DNA of 64,000 nucleotides, from contig DIOR01000019.1 in the NCBI GenBank assembly GCA_002423965.1, forward strand, positions 41,103-105,102. The letters run 5' to 3'. A model generated the notes under the pieces. The model saw only the letters and a program-made list of their open reading frames with translations, ran no database searches and was not told the DNA's origin. Within the stretch, counting starts at the first letter, position 1, and each line of letters opens with the position of its first letter. Below are positions 6,142 to 40,266 of this stretch, in pieces. This DNA comes from Firmicutes bacterium UBA5509. GTDB lineage: Bacteria > Bacillota > Proteinivoracia > UBA4975. The position numbers and the translations under genes are program-made.

Positions 6142-7779
6142 ATGATGAACTTGGCTAGACTTGCTTCCGGTATGCCGGCTATTATCATACTTGACGACAA
6201 GGATATTGTCTGTCATGTCGGCAATAACCTGGAGGAGGTTATTGGGAAAAAAGAAATTATCTTAGGAAAGCCCCTGCCTGAAGAGCTCTTGGGTTGGCGT
6301 CAGGAGAACCCTTGGGAGACAGAATTAAATGGACGTAGCGTCAGTCTTGTCTCTGAAGCTTGGACAGACTATACCCTCTTGCTGATTAGCGATAGCCAGG
6401 GTGCCTATTCTGGTGCCGCCACCATTCTCAACTCTATTGACGAAGGTATTCATGTAGTCAACAAGGATGGTCAGACAGTCTTTTATAACCCCACCATGGC
6501 TAAGATGGAGGGGATGGACTACAATCAGGTAATTAACTCCGATGTCCTGGCCCTCTTCCCTTCCCTGACCCCAGAGACCAGCACTATTCTCCGAGCCCTG
6601 CGCACTAGGGAGCCGGTTTATGACCAAGTGCAGACCTATTATAATAACAAGGGCCAGCGCATCACTTCTTTAAACAGCACCATTCCTTTGTGGAACGGTA
6701 GGGACTTCATCGGCGTGCTGGAAGTGGCCAAGGATGTTACCCGCATGGAGGATTTGGCCCTGAAAGTAGTGGATTTGCAGCAGCGTCTGTACAAGCGCCA
6801 TAAGGGCATGGAGGAGCAGGCTAAACTGTATAATTTCAACGACATTGTCGGCAATAGCCCTGCCCTGCGCCTTCCCTTAGAAATTGCCCGCCGGGCCGCA
6901 AGAACAACTTCACCGGTGCTGATTTACGGCGAAACGGGCACCGGCAAGGAATTGGTTGCCCAAAGTATTCATCAGTTAAGTGATCGGGAAGACAAGCCAT
7001 TTATCGCTCAAAACTGTGCAGCTCTACCCGGCACATTACTAGAAGGGATACTTTTTGGCACAGTAAAGGGCAGCTTTACTGGTGCCATCGACCGCCCCGG
7101 CCTCATTGAACAAGCTGCTGGGGGCACTTTGCTTTTGGACGAAATAAACTCCATGGATATCGACCTTCAGGCCAAACTTCTGCGGGTATTACAGGAACAT
7201 CGGGTGCGCCGGGTGGGAGGTCTAAAGGAAATCACAGTCGATGTCCGCATCATTGCCACCACCAACACCCAACCAAAGGTGGCTGTAAGCCAGGGCAGCA
7301 TTCGCCAAGATTTGTATTATCGCTTGGCGGTGGTCAACATAAATTTGCCTCCGCTAAGCCAGCGCCGGGAGGATATTCCCTTGCTCTGCAGGCACTTTGT
7401 CGATAAGTACAACCGCAAATTTGAATTGGCTATTCAAGGGGTAGCTCCTGAAAGTATGGAAATCTTTTATGCCCATCTTTGGCCGGGAAATGTCAGGGAG
7501 CTGGAGCATGTCATTGAGGGGGCCATGAATATTATTGGGGAAGAAGAATACTACATCGACATCCGCCATTTGCCGCCAAACATGGTTCCCCAACCGCCCA
7601 TGGACCGCAACCTGACTGAACTAGATAACTGCACCCTTCCAGAAGCTGTTGACCTGGTAGAGCGTGGGATGATTAAGCGGGCCATGGGCCAAACAGCGGG
7701 GAATATTACCCGGGCCGCTAGGCTGCTGGGCATTACCCGCCAATCCCTGCAATACAAACTCAGTAAGATCAAAGATTAA
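6142..7779 (+). CDS. rocR: PAS-domain sigma-54-dependent enhancer-binding activator, RocR-like
   Basis: PAS (ILNSIDEGIHVVN), GETGTGKE, NCAA, GSFTGA, LLDEI, WPGNVRELEHVIE, C-terminal Fis HTH (GNITRAARLLGITRQSLQYK); near ornithine/arginine genes. Confidence 0.8.
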   Translation: MMNLARLASGMPAIIILDDKDIVCHVGNNLEEVIGKKEIILGKPLPEELLGWRQENPWETELNGRSVSLVSEAWTDYTLLLISDSQGAYSGAATILNSIDEGIHVVNKDGQTVFYNPTMAKMEGMDYNQVINSDVLALFPSLTPETSTILRALRTREPVYDQVQTYYNNKGQRITSLNSTIPLWNGRDFIGVLEVAKDVTRMEDLALKVVDLQQRLYKRHKGMEEQAKLYNFNDIVGNSPALRLPLEIARRAARTTSPVLIYGETGTGKELVAQSIHQLSDREDKPFIAQNCAALPGTLLEGILFGTVKGSFTGAIDRPGLIEQAAGGTLLLDEINSMDIDLQAKLLRVLQEHRVRRVGGLKEITVDVRIIATTNTQPKVAVSQGSIRQDLYYRLAVVNINLPPLSQRREDIPLLCRHFVDKYNRKFELAIQGVAPESMEIFYAHLWPGNVRELEHVIEGAMNIIGEEEYYIDIRHLPPNMVPQPPMDRNLTELDNCTLPEAVDLVERGMIKRAMGQTAGNITRAARLLGITRQSLQYKLSKIKD

Positions 7780-10122: not shown

Positions 10123-10159
10123 GCAAAAAAACTGGCGCTTCGGGCGCCAGTTTTTTTGC
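10123..10159. terminator. Perfect inverted repeat / terminator upstream of ord
   Basis: GCAAAAAAACTGGCGC-ttcgg-GCGCCAGTTTTTTTGC. Confidence 0.85.
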
Positions 10160-10200: not shown

Positions 10201-10216
10201 TGGTACGATTTTTGCA
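10201..10216 (+). promoter_or_regulatory. sigma-54 (-24/-12) promoter of the ornithine/arginine cluster
   Basis: TGGTAC-GATTT-TTGCA: GG-N10-GC spacing, one mismatch to TGGCAC-N5-TTGCA, directly before ord. Confidence 0.85.
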
Positions 10217-10240
10217 TTAGAATAAGGGGAAACCTAAAAT

Positions 10241-11296
10241 ATGAAAAAAGGCAAAGGAGTGTTGGTTGTGACTGTAAAGGTAATTCATTGGGGCCTTGGC
10301 GCCATGGGTGGCGGCATGGCAAAATTGCTGGACACCAAGACTGGAGTAGAGAGTATTGCTGCAATAGATGCAGACCCTAATAAAAAAGGCAAGACCTTGG
10401 CCCAGCTCCTGGATGTTAAAAGCCAGGCTATCATTAATGACGATGCTGCAGAGGTGTTAAAAACTGATGCCCATGTGGTTATCATTGCCACTGGCTCCTT
10501 TACCCGGGAAGTCTTTCCCCAAATTGAACAGGCAGTTAAGGCTAAGAAAAACGTCATCTGCATTGCTGAGGAGATGTCCTTCCCACGGCAGCAGGAGCCC
10601 GAACTGGGCGAAAAGATCCATAAGCTAGCCCTTGAGAACAATGTCACTGTCTTAGGCACTGGAATTAACCCCGGCTTCGTCCTAGACCTACTGATAGTGG
10701 CCATGACAGGGGTTTGCTACGACATTAAGGAAATCAAAGCTTCTCGTATCAATGACCTCTCTCCCTTTGGTCCCACTGTTATGAAGACCCAAGGAGTGGG
10801 AACTACTTTGGAAGCATTTAACGCCGGAGTTGAAGCCGGTACCATTGTGGGCCATGTGGGTTTCCCCGAATCTATGGCCATGATTTCTTCCGCCCTTGGC
10901 TGGGAATTGGATGAAATTCGCCAGACCAAAGAACCTATTATAGCCAAGAAATATAGAGAAACTCCCCATGTCAAGGTTGAGCCTGGCATGGTGGCCGGTT
11001 GTCGCCATATCGCCTATGGCATTAAAGACGGCAAGACTTTGATTACTTTGATTCATCCCCAGCAAGTTCGTCCGGAGAATGAGGGAGTGGAGACCGGCGA
11101 CTTTATCGAAATTATTGGTGAACCAGGCATCCACTTAGCTATTCAGCCGGAGATTCCTGGCGGCATTGGCACCATTGCCATTGCAGTTAACTCAATTCCC
11201 AATGTTATCAATGCCGAACCCGGCTTAGTTAACATGACTCAGCTCCCTGTTCCACCAGCACTGTTGGCAGACGTCCGTTCATTAATCAAAAAATAG
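10241..11296 (+). CDS. ord: 2,4-diaminopentanoate dehydrogenase
   Basis: WGLGAMG Rossmann motif, LGTGINPGFVLD, VGHVGFPES, GGIGTIA; alternative start GTG 10268 with GGAG RBS. Confidence 0.92.
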   Translation: MKKGKGVLVVTVKVIHWGLGAMGGGMAKLLDTKTGVESIAAIDADPNKKGKTLAQLLDVKSQAIINDDAAEVLKTDAHVVIIATGSFTREVFPQIEQAVKAKKNVICIAEEMSFPRQQEPELGEKIHKLALENNVTVLGTGINPGFVLDLLIVAMTGVCYDIKEIKASRINDLSPFGPTVMKTQGVGTTLEAFNAGVEAGTIVGHVGFPESMAMISSALGWELDEIRQTKEPIIAKKYRETPHVKVEPGMVAGCRHIAYGIKDGKTLITLIHPQQVRPENEGVETGDFIEIIGEPGIHLAIQPEIPGGIGTIAIAVNSIPNVINAEPGLVNMTQLPVPPALLADVRSLIKK

Positions 11297-11307
11297 GAGG
11301 GATTTAT

Positions 11308-11616
11308 GTGATTGACAAAGCGGTGCCAAAGGGCACTTGGGTTCAAATCCACCAACAAATTCTGTCTCCTGATCAACGAGCTCCTCAGGTACCCGCAGAT
11401 ACTGCCAAGGTTCCCCTGGTTATGGTTACCAAAGGATTTCTAGAAAAAGACGGCAGCAGGAATGAAAATGTTGCAGTAAAGACACTGTGTGGCCGCGTTG
11501 TTGAAGGTAAGTTAATCAATGTTCTACCTCGTTTCTCCCATGACTTTGGCAATGCTGTTCCCGAACTCTTGGCCATCGGGCCACGGGTCCGTGCTTTGCT
11601 AGAAGGAGGAGAGTAG
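11308..11616 (+). CDS. ortA: 2-amino-4-ketopentanoate thiolase alpha subunit
   Basis: WVQIHQQIL..DQRAPQVP.DT.KVPL.M..KGFL, T..GR..EG, HDFG. Confidence 0.92.
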   Translation: MIDKAVPKGTWVQIHQQILSPDQRAPQVPADTAKVPLVMVTKGFLEKDGSRNENVAVKTLCGRVVEGKLINVLPRFSHDFGNAVPELLAIGPRVRALLEGGE

Positions 11617-11618
11617 AA

Positions 11619-13022
11619 ATGAAAGATAATAGCTATCAGGCAGTAATGGCCCGCAGCAATGAGATAATGAAAAAAGCCATCGGCATGGATTACAGTCAAT
11701 TTGAACGTGGGCAGCTGGCCTTTGATTACCAAGCAATGATGACCGAAGCCGGATACAGTCTGGAAGAAGTCATCGCCGTCCAAAGGGAGACTGGAGTGGG
11801 AAACACCCCTCTTTATGAGCTGAAGAATATTACAAAGCTTGCCCGTATTAACGCTCCCAAGGGAAAAGGCGCCCGCATCTTCCTTAAGGACGAAGCTTCA
11901 AACCCCTCTGGCAGCTTTAAAGCCCGCCGGGCTGCCTTGGCGGTCTACCATGCAGCCAAGAACGGCTACAAAGGTGTCGTCGCCGCCACCAGCGGCAACT
12001 ATGGCGCTGCAGTGGCCTCCCAAGCTGCCATCCGCGGCCTCAAGAGCATAATTGTCCAGGAGGCCTTTGACAGCAAGGGAATCTACCAGCCCGAAATCGA
12101 AGAAAAGGGTCGGGCCTGCGAAGCCTATGGTTCCGAAGTGCTGCAACTCTCCGTTGGCCCCGAACTGTTTTACGTCTTCCTTCGGGTCCTTGAGGATACT
12201 GGATTCTTTAACGCATCTCTTTACACTCCCTACGCCATTGCCGGGGTAGAGACCCTGGGTTGGGAAATTGTCCAACAGCTTCAGGACCAATACTCTCTAA
12301 AACCCGACATGGTTGTAGTCACTAATGCCGGCGGTGGTAACCTTACCGGCACCGCCAGGGGCCTACGTAAAGCCGGTTCCGACGCATTGGTAGTGGGTGC
12401 CAGTGTTGACCTTAAGGGCCTCCACATGGCCAGCGACCAAGACTTTAACCGAAAATCATTTACCACCGGTCATACCGGTTTTGGCGTTCCCTTTACCACA
12501 TGGCCTGACAGGGCTGATGTTCCCAGAAACGCCGCCCGCCCCCTGCGCTATTTAGACAGATACGTCACCATTACCCAGGGTGAAGCTTTCTATGTCACCG
12601 AGCTGTTGGCTCAGCTTGAGGGTCTTGAGCGGGGTCCTGCCGGCAATGTCTCCTTAGCAGCTGCCGTGGCCCTGGCCCGGGAGTTGGATGAGGACCAGAT
12701 CCTGGTTGTCCAGGAAACGGAATACACTGGTGCAGGTAAACATGTCAACGCTCAACTAAGTTTTGCTCGCAAAAATGGCATTGAGATCTCCGTTGGCAAC
12801 CCAGCTGACAGTGTCCCCGGCCAGTCCATTATTTTGCCGGAACATCCCAGCCAGATTCAAGCAGTGGATATGGACATGGATGATTTACGCCGTTCCTACC
12901 TGAAACATGCCCTGGGGATTTTAAATGGCGCAAAACCACAGCCTGAAGATATCAGCTTCCTGGCAGAGGACTGTCGCGTCACCCCTGAATTTATCGAATC
13001 TTTTGCCCAAGGAGTGAAATAA
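11619..13022 (+). CDS. ortB: 2-amino-4-ketopentanoate thiolase beta subunit (PLP)
   Basis: KDEASNPSGSFKARRA, ATSGNYGAA, NAGGGNLTGTA, QETEYTGAGKH. Confidence 0.93.
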   Translation: MKDNSYQAVMARSNEIMKKAIGMDYSQFERGQLAFDYQAMMTEAGYSLEEVIAVQRETGVGNTPLYELKNITKLARINAPKGKGARIFLKDEASNPSGSFKARRAALAVYHAAKNGYKGVVAATSGNYGAAVASQAAIRGLKSIIVQEAFDSKGIYQPEIEEKGRACEAYGSEVLQLSVGPELFYVFLRVLEDTGFFNASLYTPYAIAGVETLGWEIVQQLQDQYSLKPDMVVVTNAGGGNLTGTARGLRKAGSDALVVGASVDLKGLHMASDQDFNRKSFTTGHTGFGVPFTTWPDRADVPRNAARPLRYLDRYVTITQGEAFYVTELLAQLEGLERGPAGNVSLAAAVALARELDEDQILVVQETEYTGAGKHVNAQLSFARKNGIEISVGNPADSVPGQSIILPEHPSQIQAVDMDMDDLRRSYLKHALGILNGAKPQPEDISFLAEDCRVTPEFIESFAQGVK

Positions 13023-13387
13023 TGGAAAGAAAAGATGACTTTAAAGACCGTCGCAAGCACCTGGACGGACTCAGCGATGAGCAGCTTAACAAACGCTTCT
13101 GGGACTTACTGGACCAGGTGGTAGACCCCTTGGCAGATTTGGCCATGACCCATACTTCACCGGCTATTGAACGCTCAGTCTTATTGAGAATGGGCTTTAG
13201 CAGCCTGGAGGCCAAGTCAATCGTGGAGAAATGCCAGCAGTTTGGCCTTCTGGGCAAAGGTGTCGGCAATGTCGTCCTCAAGGCTTCTGCTATTTCCGGG
13301 CGTCCCTATCGGGAAGCCGGTCTGGAATTGGCCCAAGGCAATCTTTGGTCCCAAGTCGAAGCAGAGTTGGCGGGAGGTGCAAAATAA
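13022..13387 (+). CDS. oraS: D-ornithine 4,5-aminomutase small subunit
   Basis: ERKDDF..RRKHL, RFW.L, THTSPAIERSVLLRMGFSSLEAK, GLLGKGVG. Confidence 0.93.
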   Translation: MERKDDFKDRRKHLDGLSDEQLNKRFWDLLDQVVDPLADLAMTHTSPAIERSVLLRMGFSSLEAKSIVEKCQQFGLLGKGVGNVVLKASAISGRPYREAGLELAQGNLWSQVEAELAGGAK

Positions 13388-15573
13388 TGGACGTAAATAA
13401 AAAGCTCAATATACCCGAACTGCTAAAGGATTTGGAAAGCTATCGCCCCCGCCGCAAAGGCTGGACCTGGAGGAAGTCCCTGCCCCGGGATACCCAGTTA
13501 GGGCCCTTTAAGTTCAAGCAAATTTCCAAGTCCCTAAAAAATTATGTGCCTCTGCCGGCGGCCAAGTATTTTGGCAATATCGACCCCCAACCGGAATGCA
13601 TTATCACCACCGAAATCGCCTCCGGGCGTTTTGAAGACGATATCCGCCGGATGCGCATGGCCGCCTGGCATGGCGCAGACCACATTATGGTCATTCGCAC
13701 CGCCGGTCAAAGCCATTATGACGGCTTGATTGAAGGTTCCCCAGAGGGAATCGGTGGCGTGCCCATCACCCGTAAACAGCTACGTGCCTCGCGCAAGGCC
13801 CTAGACATAATTGAAGACGAAGTTGGCCGTCCAATTAACTTCCACTCATACGTCAGCGGCGTTGCCGGCCCCGACATTGCCGTGCTCTTCGCTGAAGAAG
13901 GAGTGAACGGTGCTCATCAGGACCCCCAATACAACGTCCTTTATCGCAATGTCAACATGATCCGTTCCTTTGTGGATGCCGCAGAAGCCAAGAAACTGAT
14001 GGCCAGCGTCGACATGCTGCAAATTGACGGTGCCCATAATGCCAACGCCACTGCCCGGGAAGCATGGCTAGTAATGCCGGAACTCTTGGTTCAGCACGGC
14101 ATTAACTGTGCCTTCTCCCTAAAGGCCGGCATGAAAAAGGAATATATCAGCCTGTCTACCGTTCCCCCAACTGCTACGCCTGCGCCGGAGTTGTACTTGG
14201 ACCTCCCCTATGCCGTCGCTTTACGGGAACTGTTCCAGGGTTACAAGATGCGGGCCCAGATGAACTCTAAGTACATGGAGGCAGATCCTCGGGAAGCCAC
14301 CGTCAACCATACAATGAACCTGTTGATCTCCCGGTTGACCAGTGTGGATATCCAGAGCACCATTACCCCCGACGAAGGCCGCAACGTACCTTGGCACTAT
14401 AACAATATTGCTGCCACCAACACTGCCAAGCAGATGCTTATTGGCCTAGATGGCATCAAGGACTTAGTTGAAATTAAAAAAGACGGTCCCCTTCGGGACA
14501 AAGTCCGGGAGCTAAAGGAACGGGCAATCCTCTTCCTTGAAGAGATGGTAGAAGTCGGCGGCTATTTCAAGGCTGTAGAAGCAGGCTTTTTTGTAGACTC
14601 AGCTCAATACCCTGCTCGCAACTACGACGGCATCGTCCGTCATGCCGACGGAGGCATTGGTCCGGATTCAGTCTTCCTCCGGGATAAGGATTATTTCGCC
14701 CCTGTATGTCAGCACTACGGCAATAACAACCTGCCAGTAGGCACCAAAAAGGCCTGCGACCTCATCCAAGGCTGCACCCTCTGTCATCCAGAAAAAATCA
14801 TCTATATTGATGAACTGGATGAAGAGGACAATGCCGCTAAGCGCTTAGAGGTAATGGCAGACCATCGAGAAAAGGGCCTACTTCGCCCAGAAGTAGAATG
14901 GTATGCTGATGGTGTAATTAGCATGCAGCTCTTCTATCCCACCAGCGCCCGGGTGGCAGAATACGCCGCTTTGGCCATGGCGGAGAAGATGGGAATCACC
15001 GAGGCAGAGATTATTAACCGCCTACCCATGCATCCTTCTGAGGGAACCTTCCTGGAACTAAAGGGCAAAGTCGCCATTGACATTGATCCAGCCAAATTAG
15101 ACATTCCCGAAGAAGTACCCCTTCTCACCGAGGAAGAAATCCGCGCCGACATCAAGGCAAAGCCCATGACCATTGTTGGGGCAACTGTTGGCCAGGACGA
15201 ACACTCAGTGGGGATGAGAGAAATCATAGACATCAAGCACGGTGGCATCGAAGGCTTTGGCATTACCTGTCACTACCTAGGCACCTCTGTTTCTTTAGAA
15301 AAGGTAGTAGACGCCGCCATCGAAACCGCTGCTGACGCCATTCTCATCAGCACCATCATCACCCATGCTGATATTCACCGCATCAACATGCGCAAACTCC
15401 ACGACCTATGCAAGGAAAAGGGCATTCGGGACAAGATCATCTTGATTTCCGGAGGCACCCAGGTTACCAATGACATCGCCGTGGAAGAAGGCATGGATGC
15501 CGGCTTTGGCCGGGGAACTCACGGCCACGCCGTAGCCAGCTTCCTGGTGGATAAACGCCGCACCCTGAAATAA
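13387..15573 (+). CDS. oraE: D-ornithine 4,5-aminomutase large subunit (AdoCbl/PLP)
   Basis: EIASGRFEDDIRRMRMAAWHGADHIMVIRT, DEH cobalamin motif and IDIKHGGIE PLP lysine; start moved to ATG 13387 overlapping oraS stop. Confidence 0.95.
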   Translation: MDVNKKLNIPELLKDLESYRPRRKGWTWRKSLPRDTQLGPFKFKQISKSLKNYVPLPAAKYFGNIDPQPECIITTEIASGRFEDDIRRMRMAAWHGADHIMVIRTAGQSHYDGLIEGSPEGIGGVPITRKQLRASRKALDIIEDEVGRPINFHSYVSGVAGPDIAVLFAEEGVNGAHQDPQYNVLYRNVNMIRSFVDAAEAKKLMASVDMLQIDGAHNANATAREAWLVMPELLVQHGINCAFSLKAGMKKEYISLSTVPPTATPAPELYLDLPYAVALRELFQGYKMRAQMNSKYMEADPREATVNHTMNLLISRLTSVDIQSTITPDEGRNVPWHYNNIAATNTAKQMLIGLDGIKDLVEIKKDGPLRDKVRELKERAILFLEEMVEVGGYFKAVEAGFFVDSAQYPARNYDGIVRHADGGIGPDSVFLRDKDYFAPVCQHYGNNNLPVGTKKACDLIQGCTLCHPEKIIYIDELDEEDNAAKRLEVMADHREKGLLRPEVEWYADGVISMQLFYPTSARVAEYAALAMAEKMGITEAEIINRLPMHPSEGTFLELKGKVAIDIDPAKLDIPEEVPLLTEEEIRADIKAKPMTIVGATVGQDEHSVGMREIIDIKHGGIEGFGITCHYLGTSVSLEKVVDAAIETAADAILISTIITHADIHRINMRKLHDLCKEKGIRDKIILISGGTQVTNDIAVEEGMDAGFGRGTHGHAVASFLVDKRRTLK

Positions 15574-15584
15574 GAAGGTGTAGT

Positions 15585-16961
15585 ATGAAACTGGAGATAA
15601 TTGTGGCGGAAATAGGAAGCACAACTACGGTGGTCAGTGGCTTTTCCGATTTGGGCACCGCCCCGGTCCTGGTGGGCCAGGGACAGGGTCCTACCACAGT
15701 TGAAGCCGGAGATGTTCGCCGGGGGCTAACACTGGCCCTGGCGGACCTCCGGGCCAATTTAGGATGTGACCAATTGGAATGGCAGCATATTTACGCCTGT
15801 AGTAGTGCTGCCGGCGGCCTGAAGATGACCGTCCACGGTCTGGTCTACGACATGACCGCCCGGGCTGCCCGGGAAGCAGCTTTAGGTGCCGGGGCCGTCC
15901 TCCATCAAGTTACCGCTGGAGAGATTTCCCCCACCGATCTTGAAAAGACCCGCCAGATTTCCCCTAATATCATTTTGCTAGCTGGGGGAGTAGATTATGG
16001 CGAGCGCAAAATTATTCTGGACAACTCCCGTAAGCTAGCCACACTGGACCTGCCCATTCCCCTGATCTACGCCGGCAATGTGGCAATTCAGGAGGAAATA
16101 GCTGAAATCTTCACTGGCACCCGCTTTCTTCTGGAAATTGTGGAAAATGTCTATCCACACATTGATGAACTAAATATCGAGCCTACCCGAAAGGCAATTC
16201 AAAAGGCATTTGAGGAACATATTATCCACGCCCCGGGAATGGGTCAGATTCGGGAATTGGTAGATGGCCCCATTCAGCCGGTGCCTGGAGCTGTCCTCAA
16301 CGCCGCTATTACTCTCTATGGCAGGTTGGGGGATTTGCTGGTCTTTGATGTAGGAGGGGCCACCACGGATTTACATTCCGTTACCCCGGGTTCAGACGAA
16401 GTTAATGCTATCCTCATCAGCCCTGAGCCGCTAGCTAAGCGGACAGTGGAGGGAGATTTGGGAGTCTACATCAACGCTGCCAACCTTATGGGTTTGGCCG
16501 GCAGGGAAGATCTCGCTGCCACCCTGGGTAGGATAGACCTTGATGAGTTAATTGTCCCCATTCCAAAAACCGCTGCAGAAATCGCCTTTGCCGAAGCACT
16601 AGCGGCTAAAGCTGTCAGCACCGCCCTAGAGCGCCATGCCGGATCCATTCGCTATATGTATGGACCCGGGGGCAGGCTGAAAATTGCCCGGGGCAAAGAC
16701 CTTACTCAGGTGAAATATGTCATCGGCACAGGTGGTGCCCTTACACGGCTTCCCAAGGGCAAAGAACTTTTGGCGGTGGGCTTATTATCTCGGAATCCTG
16801 ACTTTCTCGGGCCATCCCGGGAGGTCAAGGTCCTCATTGACCGCCACTATATAATGGCAGCCGCTGGCGTATTGGCCAGCAGTCACCCCCAGGCCGCCAT
16901 TACCTTGATGTTAAAATCTTTGGACTTGGAGGGGTTTGATGTATCCCAAACTAATAATTGA
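15585..16961 (+). CDS. GlmL/MutL-like reactivating factor for ornithine aminomutase
   Basis: VAEIGSTTT, CSSAAGGLKM, LLAGGVDYG, DVGGATTD, KRTVEGDLG; conserved position between oraE and orr. Confidence 0.85.
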   Translation: MKLEIIVAEIGSTTTVVSGFSDLGTAPVLVGQGQGPTTVEAGDVRRGLTLALADLRANLGCDQLEWQHIYACSSAAGGLKMTVHGLVYDMTARAAREAALGAGAVLHQVTAGEISPTDLEKTRQISPNIILLAGGVDYGERKIILDNSRKLATLDLPIPLIYAGNVAIQEEIAEIFTGTRFLLEIVENVYPHIDELNIEPTRKAIQKAFEEHIIHAPGMGQIRELVDGPIQPVPGAVLNAAITLYGRLGDLLVFDVGGATTDLHSVTPGSDEVNAILISPEPLAKRTVEGDLGVYINAANLMGLAGREDLAATLGRIDLDELIVPIPKTAAEIAFAEALAAKAVSTALERHAGSIRYMYGPGGRLKIARGKDLTQVKYVIGTGGALTRLPKGKELLAVGLLSRNPDFLGPSREVKVLIDRHYIMAAAGVLASSHPQAAITLMLKSLDLEGFDVSQTNN

Positions 16962-18000
16962 CCTAAAGAAGCTCCAGGAAAACTCTCAGCTTCTGGCCAA
17001 TCTTTGCTTAGCAGAGAACATCCAGCCTGTCGCAGTAACAAAGGTCACCTGCGGTGACCCCAAGGTGGCTCAGGCCATGCTGGCTGGAGGCATCTCCATG
17101 CTGGCGGAGTCCCGGGTGGAGAATGCCCGTCGCCTACAGGCCGCAGGCATTGATGCTCCCCTTCTTTTGCTGCGATTACCCATGCTCAGCCAAGTTGAGG
17201 CAGTGGTGGAGCTTTTCCAATGCAGTCTCAACTCTGAGCTAAGTACAATCCGGGCCCTTAATGCTGCTGCCGCCAAAGTAGATGCTGTCCACGATATCAT
17301 CCTTATGGTGGATTTAGGTGACCTACGGGAAGGGATAATGCCTCATGAGTTGGAGGACATGGTTCTTGCCATTGCCGGACTAAAGAACATTCGCTTACTG
17401 GGCCTTGGCACTAACCTTACCTGCTACGGTGGTGTAATCCCCACCTTAGAAAACCTTGGTCAGCTACTGGAATATAACCGCCAAGCTGAGAAACTCTATT
17501 CCCAGCCCCTACCGGTGATTTCCGGGGGAAATTCCAGTAGCCTCCCCTTGCTTTTACAGGGACAGCTACCCCCAGTCACCCAGCTGCGCCTAGGTGAGAG
17601 CATAGTACTTGGTCGCGAAACCGTTGATCGCCAGCCTATTCCCGGCGCGCATCTGGATTGCTTTCAAATCCAGGCCGAGATTATTGAAATTAGGGAAAAG
17701 CCCTCAGTGCCCATCGGCAAAATCGGCCAGGACGCCTTTGGAGGCAGTCCTGTCTTTGAGGACCGGGGGACCCATTTACGGGCAATCCTAGCCCTTGGCC
17801 GTCAAGACGTTGTCGTCGATGGTCTCGAGACCCCTCAGGGAATAGATATACTGGGGGCCAGCAGCGACCACTTGCTGCTGGACGTGACAAACTATCCTAA
17901 ACCCTTGGCGGTGGGGGATATCCTGACCTTTACCCCTGGTTATGGCTCCCTCTTGGCTGCCATGACTTCCGCTTTTGTTAACAAAGAATACCGCCAGTAA
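16939..18000 (+). CDS. orr: Ornithine racemase (alanine racemase fold)
   Basis: VTKV PLP lysine, MVDLGDLREG, TNLTCYG, SGGNSSS, LRLGES, GASSDH. Confidence 0.9.
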   Translation: MYPKLIIDLKKLQENSQLLANLCLAENIQPVAVTKVTCGDPKVAQAMLAGGISMLAESRVENARRLQAAGIDAPLLLLRLPMLSQVEAVVELFQCSLNSELSTIRALNAAAAKVDAVHDIILMVDLGDLREGIMPHELEDMVLAIAGLKNIRLLGLGTNLTCYGGVIPTLENLGQLLEYNRQAEKLYSQPLPVISGGNSSSLPLLLQGQLPPVTQLRLGESIVLGRETVDRQPIPGAHLDCFQIQAEIIEIREKPSVPIGKIGQDAFGGSPVFEDRGTHLRAILALGRQDVVVDGLETPQGIDILGASSDHLLLDVTNYPKPLAVGDILTFTPGYGSLLAAMTSAFVNKEYRQ

Positions 18001-18015
18001 TCGGAGGCGATTGTT

Positions 18016-19383
18016 ATGAGCCCAATAGTATTTGCCGGCTTTGCTCCACATCCTCCTCTGCTAATTGAGGGTGTAGGAGATGAACACAAGCCGGAGGCGG
18101 CCCAAACAGATGAGGCATATCGGCAGCTGGCTGCCCGCCTGGTAGAAACCCAGCCAAACACAGTGATAGTCGTGACTCCCCACGGGCCGGTATTCTCAGA
18201 TGCCTATACCATACCGGGCTGGGACACTTTGCACGGGGACTTTACCCCTTTTGGCTCTGCAGTCTCCATGACCTGGGAGGCAAATACAGGTTACAGCCGC
18301 CAGGCAGAAACTCTAGCTGCAAAAAAGGGGTTGCCCTTGGTTGTGGTTAATTCTCGTCAGTTGGCCAGCCATCGCTACAGCACCGGCTTGGACCACGGAA
18401 CCATGGTTCCCCTGTGGTATTTACAGGCTGCTGGCTGGAAGGGGAAGGTAGTATGCATTCGCATCGGCGGCCTTCCTCCACGCCAATGCTATGAGATTGG
18501 TAAGGTTCTGGCTGAGACCTCTGGGGACGAAAAAATCGCCCTTATTGCCAGCGGCGACATGTCTCATTGTCTCAAGGAAAATGGTCCTTCACCTTACAAC
18601 CCCGTGGGGCTAGAATTTGATGAGACTGTTGTCGCCGCCTTAGAAAAAAGCGATTATCAGGCAGTGCTGGCTATTCCTCCAGAGTTTCGCCAGCGAGCGG
18701 CTGAATGCGGCTGGCGCCCCTTAGTCACTTTACTGGGGGCTTTAGATGGCAGAGAAAGCAAAAGCCAGGTTCTCAGCTATCAGGGACCCTTTGGGGTAGG
18801 ATACCTTGTTGCCATCTTTACACTGGAAGACGGAGAAAGGCAGGGGTTAACTTTTCCACTGAATACCCCGGAAGATGCCAGCATCTACACCCAGCTGGCC
18901 AGAAAGGCAATTCGCCAGTACCTGATAAAGGAAGAGACTATAGAGATAGAATCTCCCGAGCCTCCCTTGGACCGTCCCCAAGCCGCTTTTGTCAGCTTAA
19001 AATTGGACGATCAACTTCGGGGTTGCATCGGCACTATTGAGCCAAAGTATGAACATTTAGGGGCAGAGATCGTTGCCAATGCCATCGCCGCAGCCACCAC
19101 CGATCCCCGCTTTGACAGGGTCACCATTTCCGATCTGGAGCAGTTATCCATCAGTGTAGACCTTTTGTCGGAGCCTGTACCAGCAACTTACTCACAGCTG
19201 GATCCCTCTAAGCTAGGCTTAATTGCCCAGTGGCGAGGGCGCAGGGGCTTGCTACTGCCTGATTTATCTGGAGTCGATACCCCGGAAGAGCAGCTGGAAA
19301 TAGCCCTGCGCAAGGGGGGCATTCCCAAGGAAAAGGCTAGGGAGGCCAAGCTATACACCTTTACAGTTGAAAGGCATTACTAA
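18016..19383 (+). CDS. amrA: AmmeMemoRadiSam system protein: N-terminal LigB/MEMO-like domain fused to C-terminal AMMECR1 domain
   Basis: PHPP, TPHG, LDHG, SGDMSH, ECG in N-half; AFVSL...LRGCIGT, AATTDPRF, VDLLS, GLLLPDL in C-half. Confidence 0.88.
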   Translation: MSPIVFAGFAPHPPLLIEGVGDEHKPEAAQTDEAYRQLAARLVETQPNTVIVVTPHGPVFSDAYTIPGWDTLHGDFTPFGSAVSMTWEANTGYSRQAETLAAKKGLPLVVVNSRQLASHRYSTGLDHGTMVPLWYLQAAGWKGKVVCIRIGGLPPRQCYEIGKVLAETSGDEKIALIASGDMSHCLKENGPSPYNPVGLEFDETVVAALEKSDYQAVLAIPPEFRQRAAECGWRPLVTLLGALDGRESKSQVLSYQGPFGVGYLVAIFTLEDGERQGLTFPLNTPEDASIYTQLARKAIRQYLIKEETIEIESPEPPLDRPQAAFVSLKLDDQLRGCIGTIEPKYEHLGAEIVANAIAAATTDPRFDRVTISDLEQLSISVDLLSEPVPATYSQLDPSKLGLIAQWRGRRGLLLPDLSGVDTPEEQLEIALRKGGIPKEKAREAKLYTFTVERHY

Positions 19384-19384
19384 G

Positions 19385-20377
19385 ATGCAAGAAGCCCTGT
19401 ACTGGGAAAAGGTAGGAGGGCAAGTTCATTGCCTTCTTTGCCCCCATGACTGCACAATCCCTGCCCAGGGGAGCGGCCGTTGCCAAGTGCGCAAAAATAT
19501 TGGCGGTGTCCTATACACCCTGAACTACGGGGAAGTCAGCGGTCTGGCCCTAGATCCCATTGAAAAAAAGCCCCTCTACCACTTTTACCCCGGCAGCCTG
19601 ATCCTCTCGGTGGGCTCCAGAGGGTGTAATCTTAACTGCGGCTTTTGCCAAAACTGGCCCAGTGTCCAGGGAGAATATCCTATGGAGACACTGAATCCGT
19701 CAGAACTGGTGGACTTGGCAGAGGCAACAAAGAAACGAGGAAACATTGGCATAGCCTTTACCTATACCGAACCCCTGGTCTGGTATGAGTATGTCCTGGC
19801 AGGAGCAAAAGAGGCCCGCAGGCGGGGACTGAAGACCGTCCTGGTTACTAACGGCTTCGTCAGCCTCCAGCCATGGCTGGAACTCCTTGACACCATAGAC
19901 GCAGTTAATATCGACCTTAAGGCCTTTAACACCGATTTTTACCGGGATAATTGTAAGGGCAGTCTGGAGCCAGTCCAGGAGGCCATTGCCGCTGCAGTTG
20001 GCAAATGCCATGTGGAGGTCACCACTCTCCTAATCCCAGGAGAGAACTCCGGGAAAGAGGAAATTGACCGACTCAGCACATTTCTGGCCGGACTCAATCC
20101 CCAGATTCCCCTGCACCTGTCCCGCTACCATCCAGCCCGACAGTGGCAGCAGCCTGCCACCCCACCGGAACTGATACGGGACTTGGCAGAAATAGCCCGG
20201 CAAGAGCTTGAGTTCGTCTATACCGGAAACCTGCCAGGCTCATACTCTGCCGGAACTTATTGCCCTCAGTGTGGACAGCTTCTAATTCAACGGGGCACTT
20301 CCCCCGGAGTGTTGTTATCCGGGAATAGCTGTCCCCGCTGTAAATACAGACTAAGTATCCCAGCATGCAAGGAGTGA
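19385..20377 (+). CDS. amrS: AmmeMemoRadiSam system radical SAM enzyme
   Basis: N-terminal CLLCPHDC...GRC, LDPIEKKPLYHFYPG, CNLNCGFCQN, FTYTEP, C-terminal CPQC/CPRC. Confidence 0.92.
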   Translation: MQEALYWEKVGGQVHCLLCPHDCTIPAQGSGRCQVRKNIGGVLYTLNYGEVSGLALDPIEKKPLYHFYPGSLILSVGSRGCNLNCGFCQNWPSVQGEYPMETLNPSELVDLAEATKKRGNIGIAFTYTEPLVWYEYVLAGAKEARRRGLKTVLVTNGFVSLQPWLELLDTIDAVNIDLKAFNTDFYRDNCKGSLEPVQEAIAAAVGKCHVEVTTLLIPGENSGKEEIDRLSTFLAGLNPQIPLHLSRYHPARQWQQPATPPELIRDLAEIARQELEFVYTGNLPGSYSAGTYCPQCGQLLIQRGTSPGVLLSGNSCPRCKYRLSIPACKE

Positions 20378-20381
20378 ATCT

Positions 20382-21311
20382 ATGAACAAGCGAGTTGTAG
20401 TGGCCTTAGGTGGAAACGCCATCCTCCAGCCCAAACAGGCTGGAACAGCTGAAGTGCAGTTTAAAAACGTTATCAACACCTGTATTCAGTTGGCGGACCT
20501 CATTAAGGTGGGTTACCAGTTGGTCATTACCCACGGCAATGGGCCCCAGGTGGGCAATATTCTATTGCAAAATGAAGAGGCCAAGGACAAGATTCCGCCA
20601 ATGCCCTTAGATGTATGCGGTTCTCAGACCCAGGGGTTCATTGGCTATATGATCCAGCAGTCCATGCAAAACCTGCTTCCCCAGCGCCATGTGGGTACAA
20701 TTCTCACCCAGGTCTTAGTAGATTCTGGCGACAGCGCCTTTCAAAATCCCACAAAGCCCATCGGCCCCTTTTATACACAGCAGCAGGCTAAGGAACTCAT
20801 AGCCCAAAAGGGATATACTATGGTTGAAGACAGCGGCCGCGGATGGCGCAGGGTGGTTCCCTCCCCCAATCCAATTAGCATTGTGGAAAAAGATCTCATT
20901 CAGGCCCTCCTGGACAAGGATGCAATTGTTATCGCCGCAGGCGGCGGTGGCATCCCAGTGGTTAAGGACAGCCAGGGTCAGCTCAGCGGCATTGAGGCCG
21001 TGATTGACAAGGACCTGGCAGGAGCGCGCTTGGCTGGGGACGTGGGTGCAGACATCCTCTTAATTCTCACCGATGTAGAGGCCGTAGCCACCAATTGGGG
21101 CAAACCGGATCAAAAATTCCTCCACCATCTGAGCCTGGAAGAAGCCAAAGAATATGCTGCTCAGGGTCAATTCAAAGCCGGCAGCATGGGGCCAAAGGTG
21201 GAGGCAGCTCTGCGCTTTGTTGAGCAAGGGGGAGAGAAGGCAATTATAGTCTCCCTGAACAAGGCAGCAGCTGCTTTACAAGGGACAGCAGGTACAATAA
21301 TTTTAAAATAA
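20382..21311 (+). CDS. arcC: Carbamate kinase
   Basis: VVALGGNA, THGNGPQVG, PTKPIGPF, WRRVVPSP, VIDKD, GSMGPKV. Confidence 0.96.
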   Translation: MNKRVVVALGGNAILQPKQAGTAEVQFKNVINTCIQLADLIKVGYQLVITHGNGPQVGNILLQNEEAKDKIPPMPLDVCGSQTQGFIGYMIQQSMQNLLPQRHVGTILTQVLVDSGDSAFQNPTKPIGPFYTQQQAKELIAQKGYTMVEDSGRGWRRVVPSPNPISIVEKDLIQALLDKDAIVIAAGGGGIPVVKDSQGQLSGIEAVIDKDLAGARLAGDVGADILLILTDVEAVATNWGKPDQKFLHHLSLEEAKEYAAQGQFKAGSMGPKVEAALRFVEQGGEKAIIVSLNKAAAALQGTAGTIILK

Positions 21312-21341
21312 ATTTTTCCTTAAGGAAGGGAGTAGATCGAT

Positions 21342-22328
21342 TTGGCAGTTAATCTCAAAGGCAGGCATTTTCTCACTCTGTTGGACTTTAGTCCCGAAGA
21401 AATCAAGTACCTCTTGGACTTGGCCGCTGAGCTGAAAAGCCTAAAGTATGCTGGCGTCCGTCCCCGTAACTTGGAAGGCAAGAACATTGCCCTCATCTTT
21501 GAAAAGACCTCCACCCGCACCCGCTGCGCCTTTATGGTCGCGGCAGCTGATGAAGGCGCCCACGCCGACTATCTGGGCAAGGACGACATCCAGCTAGGGA
21601 AAAAGGAATCTGTGGCCGATACCGCACGGGTTCTCGGTCGCATGTTTGACGGCATCGAGTTTAGGGGCTTTGCCCATGAAACCGTCGAGACCCTGGCCAA
21701 GTATTCCGGCGTCCCTGTCTGGAACGGCCTCACCGATCAGTACCATCCCACTCAAATCTTGGCAGACTTCCTCACCATCATTGAACAAAAGGGCTACCTC
21801 CGGGGTATTAAATTTGCCTATGTAGGTGATGGTCGCAATAACATGGCCAACTCCCTGATGATCGGTGCCGCAAAGATGGGCTTAGACATGAGGGTTGTCA
21901 GTCCCAAGGACTTATTCCCTGAAGAGAGCCTTGTTAAAAAGGTTAAGGAAATTGCCGCTGAAAACGGCGCCAAAATTACCATTACCGATTCCGCCAAAGA
22001 CGGAGTTGCTGGAGCCGATGTAATATACTCCGACGTCTGGGTCAGCATGGGGGAAGAAGATCTCTTTGCCCAGCGCATCGCCCAACTCAAGCCCTACCAA
22101 ATTAACATGGACATGATTAAGATGGCTGCTCCTGACGTTACTTTCCTCCACTGTCTGCCTGCATTCCACGACCGCAACACCATCATCGGCGAGCAGATTT
22201 TCCAAGAGTTTGGACTTTCCGAAATGGAAGTAACCGACGAAGTCTTTGAAAGCAAGCATTCCAAGGCCTTTGACCAGGCAGAAAACCGCCTACACACCAT
22301 CAAGGCCGTCATGGTGGCCACCTTATAA
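21342..22328 (+). CDS. arcB: Ornithine carbamoyltransferase (likely catabolic by context)
   Basis: [38 protein letters not shown]; TTG start. Confidence 0.93.
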
Positions 22329-22445
22329 ATCGGAAGCAAGAAGCCCGATCTCCGGGCGTGGGTTCTGACAAGGTTTTAAATCAATGGGCTACTTACCGGC
22401 ACTGCCGATAAGAAATAAATTTAAACTAGGTTAGGAGGATTTATC

Positions 22446-23756
22446 GTGTCAATCAAAGTTATTATTATGGGAGCTGCAGGTCGTGACTTTCACAACTTCA
22501 ACGTCTACTTCCGTGACAATGAAGCATACGACGTAGTAGCTTTTACCGCCACCCAAATCCCCGATATTGAGGGAAGGATGTATCCCCCGGAACTCGCTGG
22601 GAAATTGTATCCCAACGGCATTCCCATCCATGCAGAAGAAGAACTCACTGACTTAATCAAGAAACACGATGTCCAGCAAGTAATCTTCGCTTACAGTGAT
22701 GTGCCCTATCCCGTCCTTATGAATAAGGCCGCCGCAGTGCAGGCCGCGGGAGCGGACTTCCGTTTTATGGGCCCCAACACCACGATGCTTAAATCTAGCA
22801 AGCCGGTTATCGCTGTTACCGCAATCCGCACTGGCGTTGGCAAAAGCCAGACGACTCGTAAAGTTTGTGACATCCTCAAGGCTATGGGAAAAAAAGTTGT
22901 TGCCATTCGCCATCCCATGCCCTACGGAGATTTAGCAAAACAAGCTTGCCAGCGCTTTGCTACCTATGCCGACCTGGATAAGCATAAATGCACCATTGAA
23001 GAGCGTGAAGAGTACGAACCCCATATTGACCGCGGCATCATAGTCTATGCCGGTGTCGACTATGGCCAAATCCTTGCAGAAGCAGAAAAAGAAGCCGACA
23101 TCATCGTCTGGGACGGCGGAAACAACGACTTCTCCTTCTACCACGCTGACCTCTACATCACCCTGGTTGACCCCCATCGCCCCGGTCACGAAGTTGGTTA
23201 TCATCCCGGCGAAGTCAACCTACGTATGGCTGACGTAGTTATCATCAACAAGATGGAAACTGCTTCCGCCGACGGCATCAACATTGTCCGCAAGAACATC
23301 GCCAAATGCGCTCCCGATGCAATAGTCATCGAAGGCGCATCCCCAATCAGCGTCAAAGACGGCCACAAGATCAAAGGCAAGAAGGTCTTGGTCATTGAAG
23401 ACGGCCCCACCCTTACCCACGGCGAAATGACTTATGGTGCCGGCACCGTCGCCGCTCGCAAATTTGGCGCAGCTGAACTTATTGACCCCCGTCCTTGGGC
23501 AGTTGGAAGCATCAAGGATACCTTTGATAAGTATACTCACCTAACCAATATTCTCCCCGCCATGGGTTACGGCGACAAGCAAATTCGTGAACTGGAAAAG
23601 ACCATCGACGCTATTGACTGCGACTTAGTTATCGCGGCTACTCCTATTGACCTTACTCGTATTCTCAAGATCAAGCGGCCCGCAGTGCGCGTTGGTTATG
23701 AACTCCAGGAAATCGGCACCCCCACCCTTGACGATGTCCTGGCCAAATTTAAGTAA
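22446..23756 (+). CDS. arcE: Arginine synthetase-like P-loop protein (cyclic 2,3-DPG synthetase/GTPase-annotated family)
   Basis: MGAAGRDFHNFN, FTATQIPDIEGR, RTGVGKSQT, HPMPYGDL, TIEEREEYEP, WDGGNND, EDGPTLTHG match the ArcE family as I recall it; adjacent to arcB and arcC. Confidence 0.8.
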   Translation: MSIKVIIMGAAGRDFHNFNVYFRDNEAYDVVAFTATQIPDIEGRMYPPELAGKLYPNGIPIHAEEELTDLIKKHDVQQVIFAYSDVPYPVLMNKAAAVQAAGADFRFMGPNTTMLKSSKPVIAVTAIRTGVGKSQTTRKVCDILKAMGKKVVAIRHPMPYGDLAKQACQRFATYADLDKHKCTIEEREEYEPHIDRGIIVYAGVDYGQILAEAEKEADIIVWDGGNNDFSFYHADLYITLVDPHRPGHEVGYHPGEVNLRMADVVIINKMETASADGINIVRKNIAKCAPDAIVIEGASPISVKDGHKIKGKKVLVIEDGPTLTHGEMTYGAGTVAARKFGAAELIDPRPWAVGSIKDTFDKYTHLTNILPAMGYGDKQIRELEKTIDAIDCDLVIAATPIDLTRILKIKRPAVRVGYELQEIGTPTLDDVLAKFK

Positions 23757-23761
23757 AACCG

Positions 23762-23790
23762 AAAGGGAGCCCACGGGCTCCCTTCCCTTT
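23762..23790 (+). terminator. Terminator closing the arginine/ornithine cluster
   Basis: AGGGAGCC-cacg-GGCTCCCT followed by a pyrimidine tract. Confidence 0.7.
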
Positions 23791-23875
23791 CTTCCCGGCA
23801 ATGCCGAGAAATGGCTGGAGGTATTGCAGGGATTTTTATCTTCTGCGGCGAAAAAATATACTGAGGTGAATTATT

Positions 23876-39324: not shown

Positions 39325-39332
39325 TCTCTCAC

Positions 39333-40262
39333 CTACTTCCGCATCTTGGGATCTAAGGCGTCGCGCAAGCCATCGCCGATGAAGTTAAAGGCCAGTAGTG
39401 TGATGCAGATAGCTACAGCGGGGAACACCAATACATGAGGATAGGATCTTAGCGTTGTCAGGGCATCGGAGGCAAGCATGCCCCAGCTTGCCATAGGAGC
39501 GGATACACCGAGGCCAATAAAACTTAAAAAGGACTCAGTGAAAATCGCTTCCGGAATAGAAATCGTTGCTGTGACGATGATGGAACCCATTACGTTGGGA
39601 ATAAGGTGCTGAAGCAATATCTTTCTCTTCTTGGCGCCGATTGTTGTTGCAGCCAGGATAAATTCCTGCTCCTTAAGACTTAAGATTTGGGCTCGGACAA
39701 TACGGGCCATTGGCAACCAATAGACTATACCCAAGGCGATAAAGATGCTGGACAGGTTTACCCCTTTGCTGCCTTCTGGGTCTAGGATCACTATGAGCAT
39801 AATCACCCATAGGAGAAAGGGAATGCTGTACATAATGTCCACGAAGCGCATCATGAGATTATCTATCTTGCCGCCGGCCAAACCGCTTATGCCTCCAAAT
39901 AGTACCCCAATTACACAGGTGGTGATTGCTGCGACAAAACCCACCGCTAAAGAGATGCGGGCACCATACATAGTTCTCACCAATATATCCCTGCCAAGAT
40001 TATCTGTGCCAAAGGGGTGCTCCCGGCAGGGCCGAAGATGAATATTGTCAAAGTCCTGATCAGAGTAGGAATAGGGAGAAAGGAAAGGACCGACAATTGC
40101 AGTCAGTGTAAGCAGGGCGATGAAAATCAGGCTGGTGATTGCCAGTGGGTTTTTCTTAAGGCGTCGCCAGGCATCTTGCCAGTAGGTAATGCTGGGTCTC
40201 GCCTCATCCGCCTGAACTCTGTTCTTATCAAGGGGTTTAAACAGCTCGGGGGATATTGCCAT
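39333..40262 (-). CDS. oppC: Oligopeptide ABC permease
   Basis: YWQDAWRRL, HPFGTDNLGRD, EQEFILAA EAA motif, ESFLSFIGLG. Confidence 0.92.
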   Translation of the reverse strand: MAISPELFKPLDKNRVQADEARPSITYWQDAWRRLKKNPLAITSLIFIALLTLTAIVGPFLSPYSYSDQDFDNIHLRPCREHPFGTDNLGRDILVRTMYGARISLAVGFVAAITTCVIGVLFGGISGLAGGKIDNLMMRFVDIMYSIPFLLWVIMLIVILDPEGSKGVNLSSIFIALGIVYWLPMARIVRAQILSLKEQEFILAATTIGAKKRKILLQHLIPNVMGSIIVTATISIPEAIFTESFLSFIGLGVSAPMASWGMLASDALTTLRSYPHVLVFPAVAICITLLAFNFIGDGLRDALDPKMRK

Positions 40263-40266
40263 TGTC

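Follow-up and report, generated by a model that had tools for sequence, protein, structure and literature searches.

We analysed a 64,000-nucleotide (nt) stretch of DNA from Firmicutes bacterium UBA5509 (assembly GCA_002423965.1, contig DIOR01000019.1, positions 41,103 to 105,102; hereafter the window) and found at 10201-23790 a cluster of twelve genes which probably constitutes a catabolic operon under sigma-54/OrdR-type control, joining an arginine synthetase (ArcE) pathway to the oxidative degradation of ornithine. The twelve intact open reading frames (ORFs) lie on the + strand in the order ord, ortA, ortB, oraS, oraE, a GlmL-like oraF, orr, amrBA, amrS, arcC, arcB and arcE (Table 1), and the family matches from profile searches with Pfam and NCBIfam were essentially full-length, in agreement with a preliminary description of this DNA that had listed the same co-directional set. 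Start codons were chosen by ribosome-binding sites and public gene calls on identical contigs, with corrected starts for oraE (13387), orr (16939) and amrS (19385). The intergenic distances from ord to arcE are 11, 2, -1, -1, 11, -23, 15, 1, 4, 30 and 117 nt. Four junctions thus overlap or abut and the widest gap precedes arcE, exactly the spacing described before (gaps of up to about 30 nt until arcB and about 117 nt ahead of arcE). For comparison we scanned 80 arcE loci from species-representative genomes and 80 oraE loci from metagenomes; comparison loci are designated L with a number.

Table 1. Features of the ornithine/arginine gene cluster and its control region (window coordinates; bit scores are given against the model cut-off).
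Feature	Position	Strand	Evidence
Sigma-54 enhancer-binding protein with PAS sensor, OrdR-type	6142..7779	+	Sigma54_activat, AAA_lid_14, HTH_8, PAS_4
Conserved inverted repeat GCAAAAAAACTGGCGC...GCGCCAGTTTTTTTGC	10123..10159	.	read from sequence
Putative sigma-54 (-24/-12) promoter TGGTACGATTTTTGCA	10201..10216	+	sole window match to TGGYAYN5TTGCW
ord, 2,4-diaminopentanoate dehydrogenase	10241..11296	+	NF040740, 497 bits vs 400
ortA, 2-amino-4-oxopentanoate thiolase alpha subunit	11308..11616	+	NF040739, 117.5 bits vs 70; PF22010
ortB, 2-amino-4-oxopentanoate thiolase beta subunit (pyridoxal phosphate (PLP)-dependent)	11619..13022	+	NF040741, 817.5 bits vs 550
oraS, D-ornithine 4,5-aminomutase small subunit	13022..13387	+	PF16552 OAM_alpha, 161 bits
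oraE, D-ornithine 4,5-aminomutase large subunit (adenosylcobalamin- and PLP-dependent)	13387..15573	+	NF040743, 1340 bits vs 800
oraF / Or-4, GlmL-like	15585..16961	+	NF040744, 640 bits vs 600; PF13941 MutL
orr, ornithine racemase (PLP-dependent)	16939..18000	+	NF040742
amrBA, fused Memo/LigB-like (B) and AMMECR1 (A)	18016..19383	+	PF02900, PF01875, PF01871
amrS, AmmeMemoRadiSam radical S-adenosylmethionine (SAM) enzyme	19385..20377	+	TIGR04337, 280.8 bits vs 220
arcC, carbamate kinase	20382..21311	+	TIGR00746, 434.9 bits vs 358, aligned 1-309/309
arcB, ornithine carbamoyltransferase (OTC)	21342..22328	+	NF003286, 531.7 bits vs 515; TIGR00658, 434.6 bits vs 281
arcB-arcE spacer element: GC hairpin (22343-22357) and palindrome CCGGCACTGCCGATAAG	22338..22412	+	repeat comparison
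arcE (ORF12), arginine synthetase family, 436 amino acids (aa)	22446..23756	+	homolog names, genera, neighbourhood, fold
Terminator-like hairpin closing the cluster	23763..23784	+	terminator scan

The first seven genes encoded for the ornithine branch. Family scores identified Ord, OrtA with OrtB, OraS with OraE, and OraF, and OraE showed a B12-binding domain (PF02310) together with OAM_dimer. Orr aligned with the whole of NF040742 (1-351/351), an 'exception' model, at 432.8 bits, which is under the cut-off of 480. The orr gene directly follows oraF in 49 of the 80 OraE loci and here overlaps it by 23 nt, while oraS overlaps ortB and oraE by 1 nt each. By analogy, OraF is presumed to serve as mutase reactivase or chaperone. 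The true start of ord is probably the GTG at 10268 and not the ATG at 10241: an AAAGGAG ribosome-binding site lies 8 nt upstream of this GTG, and in two 93% relatives (L092 and L093) the stretch from the ATG shows no conservation of coding sequence. The chemistry of these steps is established for Clostridium sticklandii (PMC3091704, citing Fonknechten 2009).

For the product of the last gene, ORF12, no match to Pfam or NCBIfam models was obtained. Its more than 8000 homologs carry names such as 'predicted GTPase', 'cyclic 2,3-diphosphoglycerate synthase' and 'cobalamin synthesis protein P47K'. ORF12 was 73% identical to a protein of Thermosediminibacter oceani, and its similarity to a real cyclic 2,3-diphosphoglycerate (cDPG) synthetase was marginal (E = 2e-7 over about 115 residues). 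The protein is soluble and has a deviant P-loop, with a TGxGKSQT loop that is invariant in the family. An AlphaFold2 model (pLDDT 92) found cDPG synthetase as best fold in the PDB, at 15-16% identity in the fold alignment, followed by A. aeolicus LpxK. Among the 80 arcE loci, arcB adjoined arcE in 17 and arcC likewise in 17. The published account of the arginine synthetase ArcE of T. kodakarensis (TK2200) describes a hypothetical protein with low similarity to cDPG synthase and an AlphaFold model resembling A. aeolicus LpxK, with homologs annotated as putative GTPases that adjoin arcB/arcC, and names Thermosediminibacter, Caldisericum, Syntrophomonas, Pseudothermotoga and others as holders of arcE (PMC11032458). 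Likened to this description by names, genera, neighbourhood and fold, ORF12 almost certainly belongs to the TK2200/ArcE family, and the gene name arcE, used already in the preliminary description, is correct in the sense of Michimori 2024. Members of the family share 64-74% identity across Bacillota, Thermoplasmata and Asgard archaea, with about 150 invariant columns among 22 sequences, and this conservation suggests a single function. A database search with an archaeal member (L059) returned Thermoplasmata proteins only and no TK2200. The name ArcE is also in use for an arginine/ornithine carrier in streptococci; a membrane arginine/ornithine exchanger was ruled out here, as ORF12 is a soluble P-loop protein with no hydrophobic segment.

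ArcE catalyzes the reversible reaction of arginine, ADP and phosphate to citrulline, ammonia and ATP (PMC11032458). In the pathway predicted for the window, ArcE would carry out this reaction from arginine to citrulline, ArcB would split citrulline by phosphorolysis into ornithine and carbamoyl-phosphate, and ArcC would use the latter to form a second ATP from ADP with release of carbon dioxide and ammonia. Orr would then convert L-ornithine to D-ornithine, and OraSE, kept active by OraF, would shift its amino group to give 2,4-diaminopentanoate. From this Ord would form 2-amino-4-oxopentanoate, ammonia and NAD(P)H, and OrtAB with CoA would yield acetyl-CoA and alanine. The same route from arginine through citrulline and ornithine to acetyl-CoA and alanine had been proposed before; our results support it as the simplest reading, and the recurrence of the gene combination in at least four lineages strengthens it. 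For the published ArcE pathway, 2 ATP per arginine and a deltaG0' of -6.8 kJ/mol for ArcE were given (PMC11032458). The ArcE route would yield 2 ATP before ornithine oxidation and a third via acetyl-CoA, whereas arginine deiminase would allow for one plus one. That ArcE runs in the catabolic direction here is suggested by the gene context. The equilibrium of OTC lies towards citrulline. A near-equilibrium ArcE in place of the irreversible arginine deiminase would remove a thermodynamic push, and an ornithine sink encoded in the same operon could restore it as a pull, the part that the deiminase and an arginine/ornithine antiporter play in the classical pathway. Such a pull would explain the repeated assembly of these genes as well as the lack of an arginine/ornithine antiporter, and the near-equilibrium first step might be viable because its product ornithine is destroyed by enzymes of the same transcript.

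Consistent with the single sigma-54 promoter described earlier in front of the cluster, the window held one match to the -24/-12 pattern, TGGTACGATTTTTGCA. The motif alone is weak evidence since 0.33 matches per window are expected by chance. The promoter is nevertheless credible because it nearly equals TTGGCACGATTTATGCTTT, which was mapped experimentally in C. difficile as the SigL promoter of its ord operon (PMC7438776), because it is conserved in both 93% relatives, and because 21 of 58 related loci have a -24/-12 element no more than 350 nt ahead of ord. The putative activator is encoded outside the region that the preliminary description had covered. Its best NCBIfam match was PrdR, below cut-off. 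As homologs of this protein (42-52% identity) are encoded directly upstream of ord in 28 of the 80 OraE loci, we regard it as the OrdR equivalent, displaced, with OrdR/CD0441 of C. difficile as precedent (PMC7438776). Two inserted genes lie between activator and ord, one an oppositely oriented FAD-binding (PRK11445-like) gene and the other encoding a DUF5667 protein (9061-10068) with a long Lys/Asn-rich C-terminal tail; most other loci have the activator gene abutting ord. Upstream of the promoter there are two terminator hairpins, of which the second is the inverted repeat of Table 1. L092 and L093, the 93% relatives, share this block with the window but differ from it in the flanking sequence. 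It is a predicted bidirectional terminator of the upstream gene and, more speculatively, also a candidate upstream binding site of the activator.

At the other end, the terminator that had been placed near 23762 was located as a hairpin directly after arcE, behind which the CCGGCAnTGCCG motif occurs a second time (23795-23811). Consensus scans of the cluster itself gave 18 sigma-70-like promoters, compared to 12.6 +/- 3.5 in shuffled sequence, and 17 terminator-like sites, compared to 18.9 +/- 4.7, and thus no excess of either. At the gene junctions there was no such site save a weak 9/12 match at arcC-arcB. Promoters or terminators dividing the cluster, which the preliminary description had named as evidence that would speak against a single unit, were therefore rejected at the level of these scans. 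In the 117-nt arcB-arcE spacer a consensus scan detected neither a T-tract terminator nor a + strand promoter, and when spacers from five lineages were aligned for a conserved promoter ahead of arcE, the ribosome-binding site alone was conserved; in the window this is a strong AGGAGG. This layout suggests co-transcription through arcE. A known RNA or riboswitch in the spacer was also rejected (no Rfam match at the gathering threshold; fold z-score -0.98 against shuffles). The spacer element appears to be one degenerate copy of a lineage-specific 71-nt intergenic repeat, made up of an 8-bp GC hairpin and the palindrome CCGGCACTGCCG. In L093, one of the 93% relatives, this unit stands 2.9 times in tandem at the same arcB-arcE site (18950-19152), and the terminator region after arcE in the window (23763-23811) is a related copy of the repeat motif. 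By analogy with a REP element, the repeat could modulate mRNA stability or read-through. L093 also has a hairpin array of 3.2 copies of a 50-nt unit (503-662).

The preliminary description had asked for a genome search for co-localised arcE and oraE. Our scans found the combination in at least four divergent lineages. A Bacillota metagenome-assembled genome (MAG; L005) encoded for ord-ortA-ortB-oraS-oraE-oraF-orr-arcC-arcB-arcE, and a Symbiobacterium MAG (L001) for ...ortB-oraS-oraE-oraF-orr-amrBA-amrS-OTC-arcE. Among the 80 oraE loci, arcE was found downstream of orr in six. One of these (L093) belongs to the lineage of the window, three (L097, L103 and L119) show orr-arcC-OTC-arcE, and two with 70% GC (L110 and L150) show orr-arcE-OTC without arcC. 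Further loci have arcB-arcC joined upstream of ord (L152 and L156) or arcB adjoining ordR (L154). At least four divergent uncultured clades hence combine the ornithine cluster with OTC and arcE, with OraE 67-72% identical between clades, and the recurring lineages are uncultured anaerobes from digesters, sediments and fermentations. In the window as in L001, L103 and L119, arcE is the final gene of the co-directional block; in L110 it is OTC, after arcE, that closes the block. Within one clade, where the block orr-arcC-OTC-arcE is otherwise conserved, the OTC of L103 (15719-16651) is only 40-42% identical to those of L005 (8879-9862) and L119 (16099-17085), compared to 82-84% for OraE and 82-86% for ArcE, which indicates that the OTC function was replaced in place by a xenolog. 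The different gene orders among lineages and this exchange of OTC point to a functional coupling, and the same functional set with differing orders, OTC classes and GC content is the pattern that selection for co-expression leaves behind.

The published OrdR operon is ord-ortBA-oraSEF-orr-nhaC, with no arc genes (PMC6615313, PMC7438776). The OrdR operon of C. difficile and relatives and the ornithine cluster of C. sticklandii are like the window in the seven catabolic genes and their order, and the C. difficile operon also in its nearly identical -24/-12 promoter and in a PAS/AAA+/HTH activator. Unlike the window, the OrdR operon carries nhaC at its 3' end, where the window encodes for amrBA-amrS-arcC-arcB-arcE and no membrane protein, and its activator is not parted from ord by two unrelated genes. 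In T. kodakarensis ArcE, ArcB and ArcC are TK2200, TK0871 and TK2158 (PMC11032458). The window shares with this pathway the three enzyme families and the predicted 2 ATP per arginine, with no arcA in the vicinity of the cluster. In the archaeon the arc genes are dispersed and ornithine serves proline biosynthesis, along with carbamoyl-phosphate supply (PMC11032458, PMC13260591), whereas in the bacterial window the three genes are contiguous behind a complete ornithine-oxidising pathway. With the classical arcABC(D) systems the window has in common adjacent genes for OTC and carbamate kinase and an ATP-yielding breakdown of arginine/citrulline with ornithine as product. It differs in lacking arginine deiminase and the arginine/ornithine antiporter, in a first step that is predicted to be energy-conserving and reversible, and in that ornithine would be consumed and not exported. 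Neither arcA nor arcD was found in 10201-23790 or its flanks. No ArcA-like ORF was present in the 64-kb window among annotated ORFs with a length of 150 aa or more, and no arginase, argGH or arcD gene was found elsewhere in it among ORFs of this size (Pfam/NCBIfam scan or names from gene calls on matching contigs).

C. sticklandii is known to couple the deimination of arginine to the oxidative degradation of ornithine (PMC3091704), and this metabolic coupling is textbook knowledge. The preliminary description knew of no account of the fused arrangement. No link between arcE and ornithine aminomutase was found in the searched literature, which did not cover Fonknechten 2009, where arcB/arcC neighbours might be shown. 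What is new is the ArcE-based and physically fused version, not the idea of arginine-ornithine coupling.

Several observations weigh against a single catabolic operon. The cluster lies in the backbone truA-rplM...cwlD-ordR...[cluster]...tldD-cdaA-glmM, and relatives without ornithine genes carry amr genes and arcE in the same slot: Natranaerobius thermophilus has cwlD, arcE, arginase-memo-ammecr1-rSAM-cdaA-ybbR-glmM, and Koleobacter has amrBA-amrS-arcE...cdaA-ybbR-glmM-glmS. Anoxybacter fermentans, also without ornithine genes, has amrBA...amrS-arcE, and Syntrophomonas palmitatica shows truA-rplM-rpsI...cwlD-amrBA-amrS with argCJB nearby. The adjacency is therefore partly inherited synteny, and the ornithine genes and arcCB seem to have joined amr and arcE in a slot that these had long occupied. 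In an 83% sister (L085/L086), orr-amrBA-amrS is followed by a divergently transcribed M20 peptidase gene and then arcE, without arcCB, an arrangement in which arcE requires a promoter of its own. In a further Bacillota MAG (L087/L088, 4559-11314) an ArcE 76% identical to that of the window is encoded in an operon argC-argJ-argB-argD-OTC-arcE. None of the 12 products of the cluster contains a transporter domain, and no transmembrane-like segment was found in them (19-residue Kyte-Doolittle mean, maximum 1.73). The only uptake system nearby is an Opp/Dpp-type peptide ABC transporter 14 kb away (37343-42864). Moreover, the GC hairpin repeat between arcB and arcE could attenuate or process the mRNA, and ORF12 was matched to TK2200 through its published description. 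Given the backbone slot of amr and arcE, the sister without arcCB and the biosynthetic 76% homolog, we only infer co-transcription and the catabolic direction.

These observations would fit an evolutionary mosaic, in which a conserved slot, truA-rplM...cwlD / amrBA-amrS-arcE / ...cdaA-glmM, took up the ornithine cluster and at a later stage arcC-arcB, and in which arcE, and perhaps amr, keep a resident function and their own expression, so that two or three units merely abut. We regard this as rather unlikely, although the backbone genes of the four relatives, the arrangement in the sister and the position of the largest gap, with its variable repeat, exactly ahead of arcE all speak for it. 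Gaps of 15, 1 and 4 nt bind amrBA and amrS to orr and arcC, and separate expression of the amr genes would thus need promoters inside coding sequence. Neither was a promoter detectable before arcE by consensus scan. The Symbiobacterium locus and the two loci with 70% GC lie outside this backbone and have arcE and OTC after orr in another order, and the replacement of OTC in place indicates selection on the combination. A mosaic origin would also be compatible with co-function of the genes at present.

A second question is the direction of ArcE, which is dependent on context. The operon might degrade imported ornithine or citrulline, with ArcB and ArcE diverting a part of the ornithine and carbamoyl-phosphate to arginine. 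They would thereby stand in for argininosuccinate synthetase and lyase, a use put forward for Syntrophomonas among others. With ample citrulline, the reversible ArcE does support the formation of arginine in vivo, and Bacillota without ArgGH were named as possible anabolic users of ArcE (PMC11032458). Dethiobacter and others have OTC-arcE pairs that lack an accompanying carbamate kinase, and the argCJBD-OTC-arcE operon of L087/L088 resembles the window in its 3'-terminal OTC-arcE pair. There arcE occupies the place expected of argG/argH, which is genomic support for a biosynthetic use in bacteria, and ArcE presumably runs towards arginine. That operon differs from the window in its biosynthetic upstream genes, in having no carbamate kinase and in an OTC with only 48% identity. 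In the window, carbamate kinase is encoded directly upstream of arcB-arcE, the signature used for a catabolic route in PMC11032458. The window OTC is 53-59% identical to the OTCs of arcC-bearing loci (L005/L097, L119, L152 and L156) and of L154, where it is encoded next to OrdR/ord, but only 44-48% identical to the biosynthetic OTC of L087 and to a second OTC class (L001, L103 and L110/L150), although L103 carries this second class and yet has arcC. A step of biosynthesis that is driven by the catabolic sigma-54/OrdR promoter, along with enzymes that destroy its precursor, would also be hard to rationalise. With arcC upstream, an OTC of the arcC-type class and the promoter of an amino-acid-fermentation regulon, the context is catabolic, and a synthetic role of ArcE here appears very unlikely. 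Hardly to be expected at all is that ORF12 is some other P-loop enzyme (cDPG-synthase-like, a kinase or a GTPase) whose adjacency to arcB has nothing to do with arginine. The lack of a Pfam or NCBIfam match, the database names and the indirect comparison with TK2200 would allow for such an enzyme. Against it stand the marginal similarity to cDPG synthetase in both sequence and fold alignment, the exceptional conservation of the family, which suggests one function, and the agreement in names, genera, arcB/arcC neighbourhood and LpxK-like fold with the published description of TK2200 homologs.

If the predicted catabolic operon is correct, the cluster and its recurrence would provide bacterial ArcE with a concrete and testable catabolic role as the enzyme that opens a self-contained fermentation of arginine. 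Arginine synthetase was described in 2024 in one archaeon; according to its authors the role in other organisms was not evaluated, and some Bacillota may use ArcE for arginine synthesis (PMC11032458). The present cluster and its recurrence might be the first clear hint of what the enzyme does in bacteria. For annotation it would follow that thousands of proteins named 'GTPase' or 'cyclic 2,3-diphosphoglycerate synthase' and encoded beside arcB/arcC or ornithine genes should be renamed.

Between the ornithine and arginine genes the cluster encoded for the A, B and radical SAM components of AmmeMemoRadiSam, with A and B fused and the radical SAM enzyme next to them. The gene previously named amrA indeed contains the AMMECR1 (A) component, but it is actually a fusion of B (Memo/LigB) and A, with 32.2 bits to TIGR04336 (cut-off 26) and 129.5 bits to TIGR04335 (cut-off 99). 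Genes amrBA-amrS were found inside an ornithine/arc operon in the lineage of the window, the 83% sister and the Symbiobacterium MAG. They adjoin arcE directly in Koleobacter and Anoxybacter, and in Natranaerobius the amr genes lie beside arginase and arcE. The amr genes recur beside arcE in several Bacillota orders even without ornithine genes (window 18016-20377; L091 7018-9427; L175 7001-10620; L090 4513-7874; L001 5802-8116; L085 5746-8095), and they adjoin arcE in only two of 80 non-Bacillota arcE loci. Behind this recurrence may be synteny inherited with the cwlD...cdaA slot, or else a role of the amr genes connected with the metabolism of arginine. Probably the amr genes are backbone residents that were absorbed into the transcription unit. 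A functional connection of AmmeMemoRadiSam with ArcE or the breakdown of arginine, in which it might for instance mature, repair or modify ArcE or one of the pathway intermediates, we consider unlikely. Such a connection would, if it exists, give a widespread but uncharacterised trio its first functional context; of this trio A and B have the human homologs AMMECR1 and MEMO1.

A gene for an M20/M28 peptidase of about 550 aa recurs beside arcE in Thermosediminibacter-like and related lineages (L085 8135-9778; L174 2814-4469; L089 13907-15553; L091 1076-4562). The T. oceani gene comes with a divergent sigma-54 activator that is 48% identical to that of the window. The peptidase may supply arginine.

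Elsewhere in the window, a flavin mononucleotide (FMN) riboswitch (58883-58999, - strand; 113.6 bits against 66.2) was the only Rfam match, and lies directly upstream of a gene for the S component of an energy-coupling factor (ECF)-type riboflavin transporter (58172-58882, - strand). The window further encoded for two YheC/D-type ATP-grasp proteins, one beside a GT8-like glycosyltransferase, and for a 1477-aa tetratricopeptide repeat (TPR) protein with a peptidase C39-like domain (regions 2153-3241, 50039-52668 and 52715-57148). At 59331-63837 a gene for a UvrD-like helicase adjoins one for a PLD-nuclease/ResIII-helicase fusion; this pair might represent a defence or repair module.

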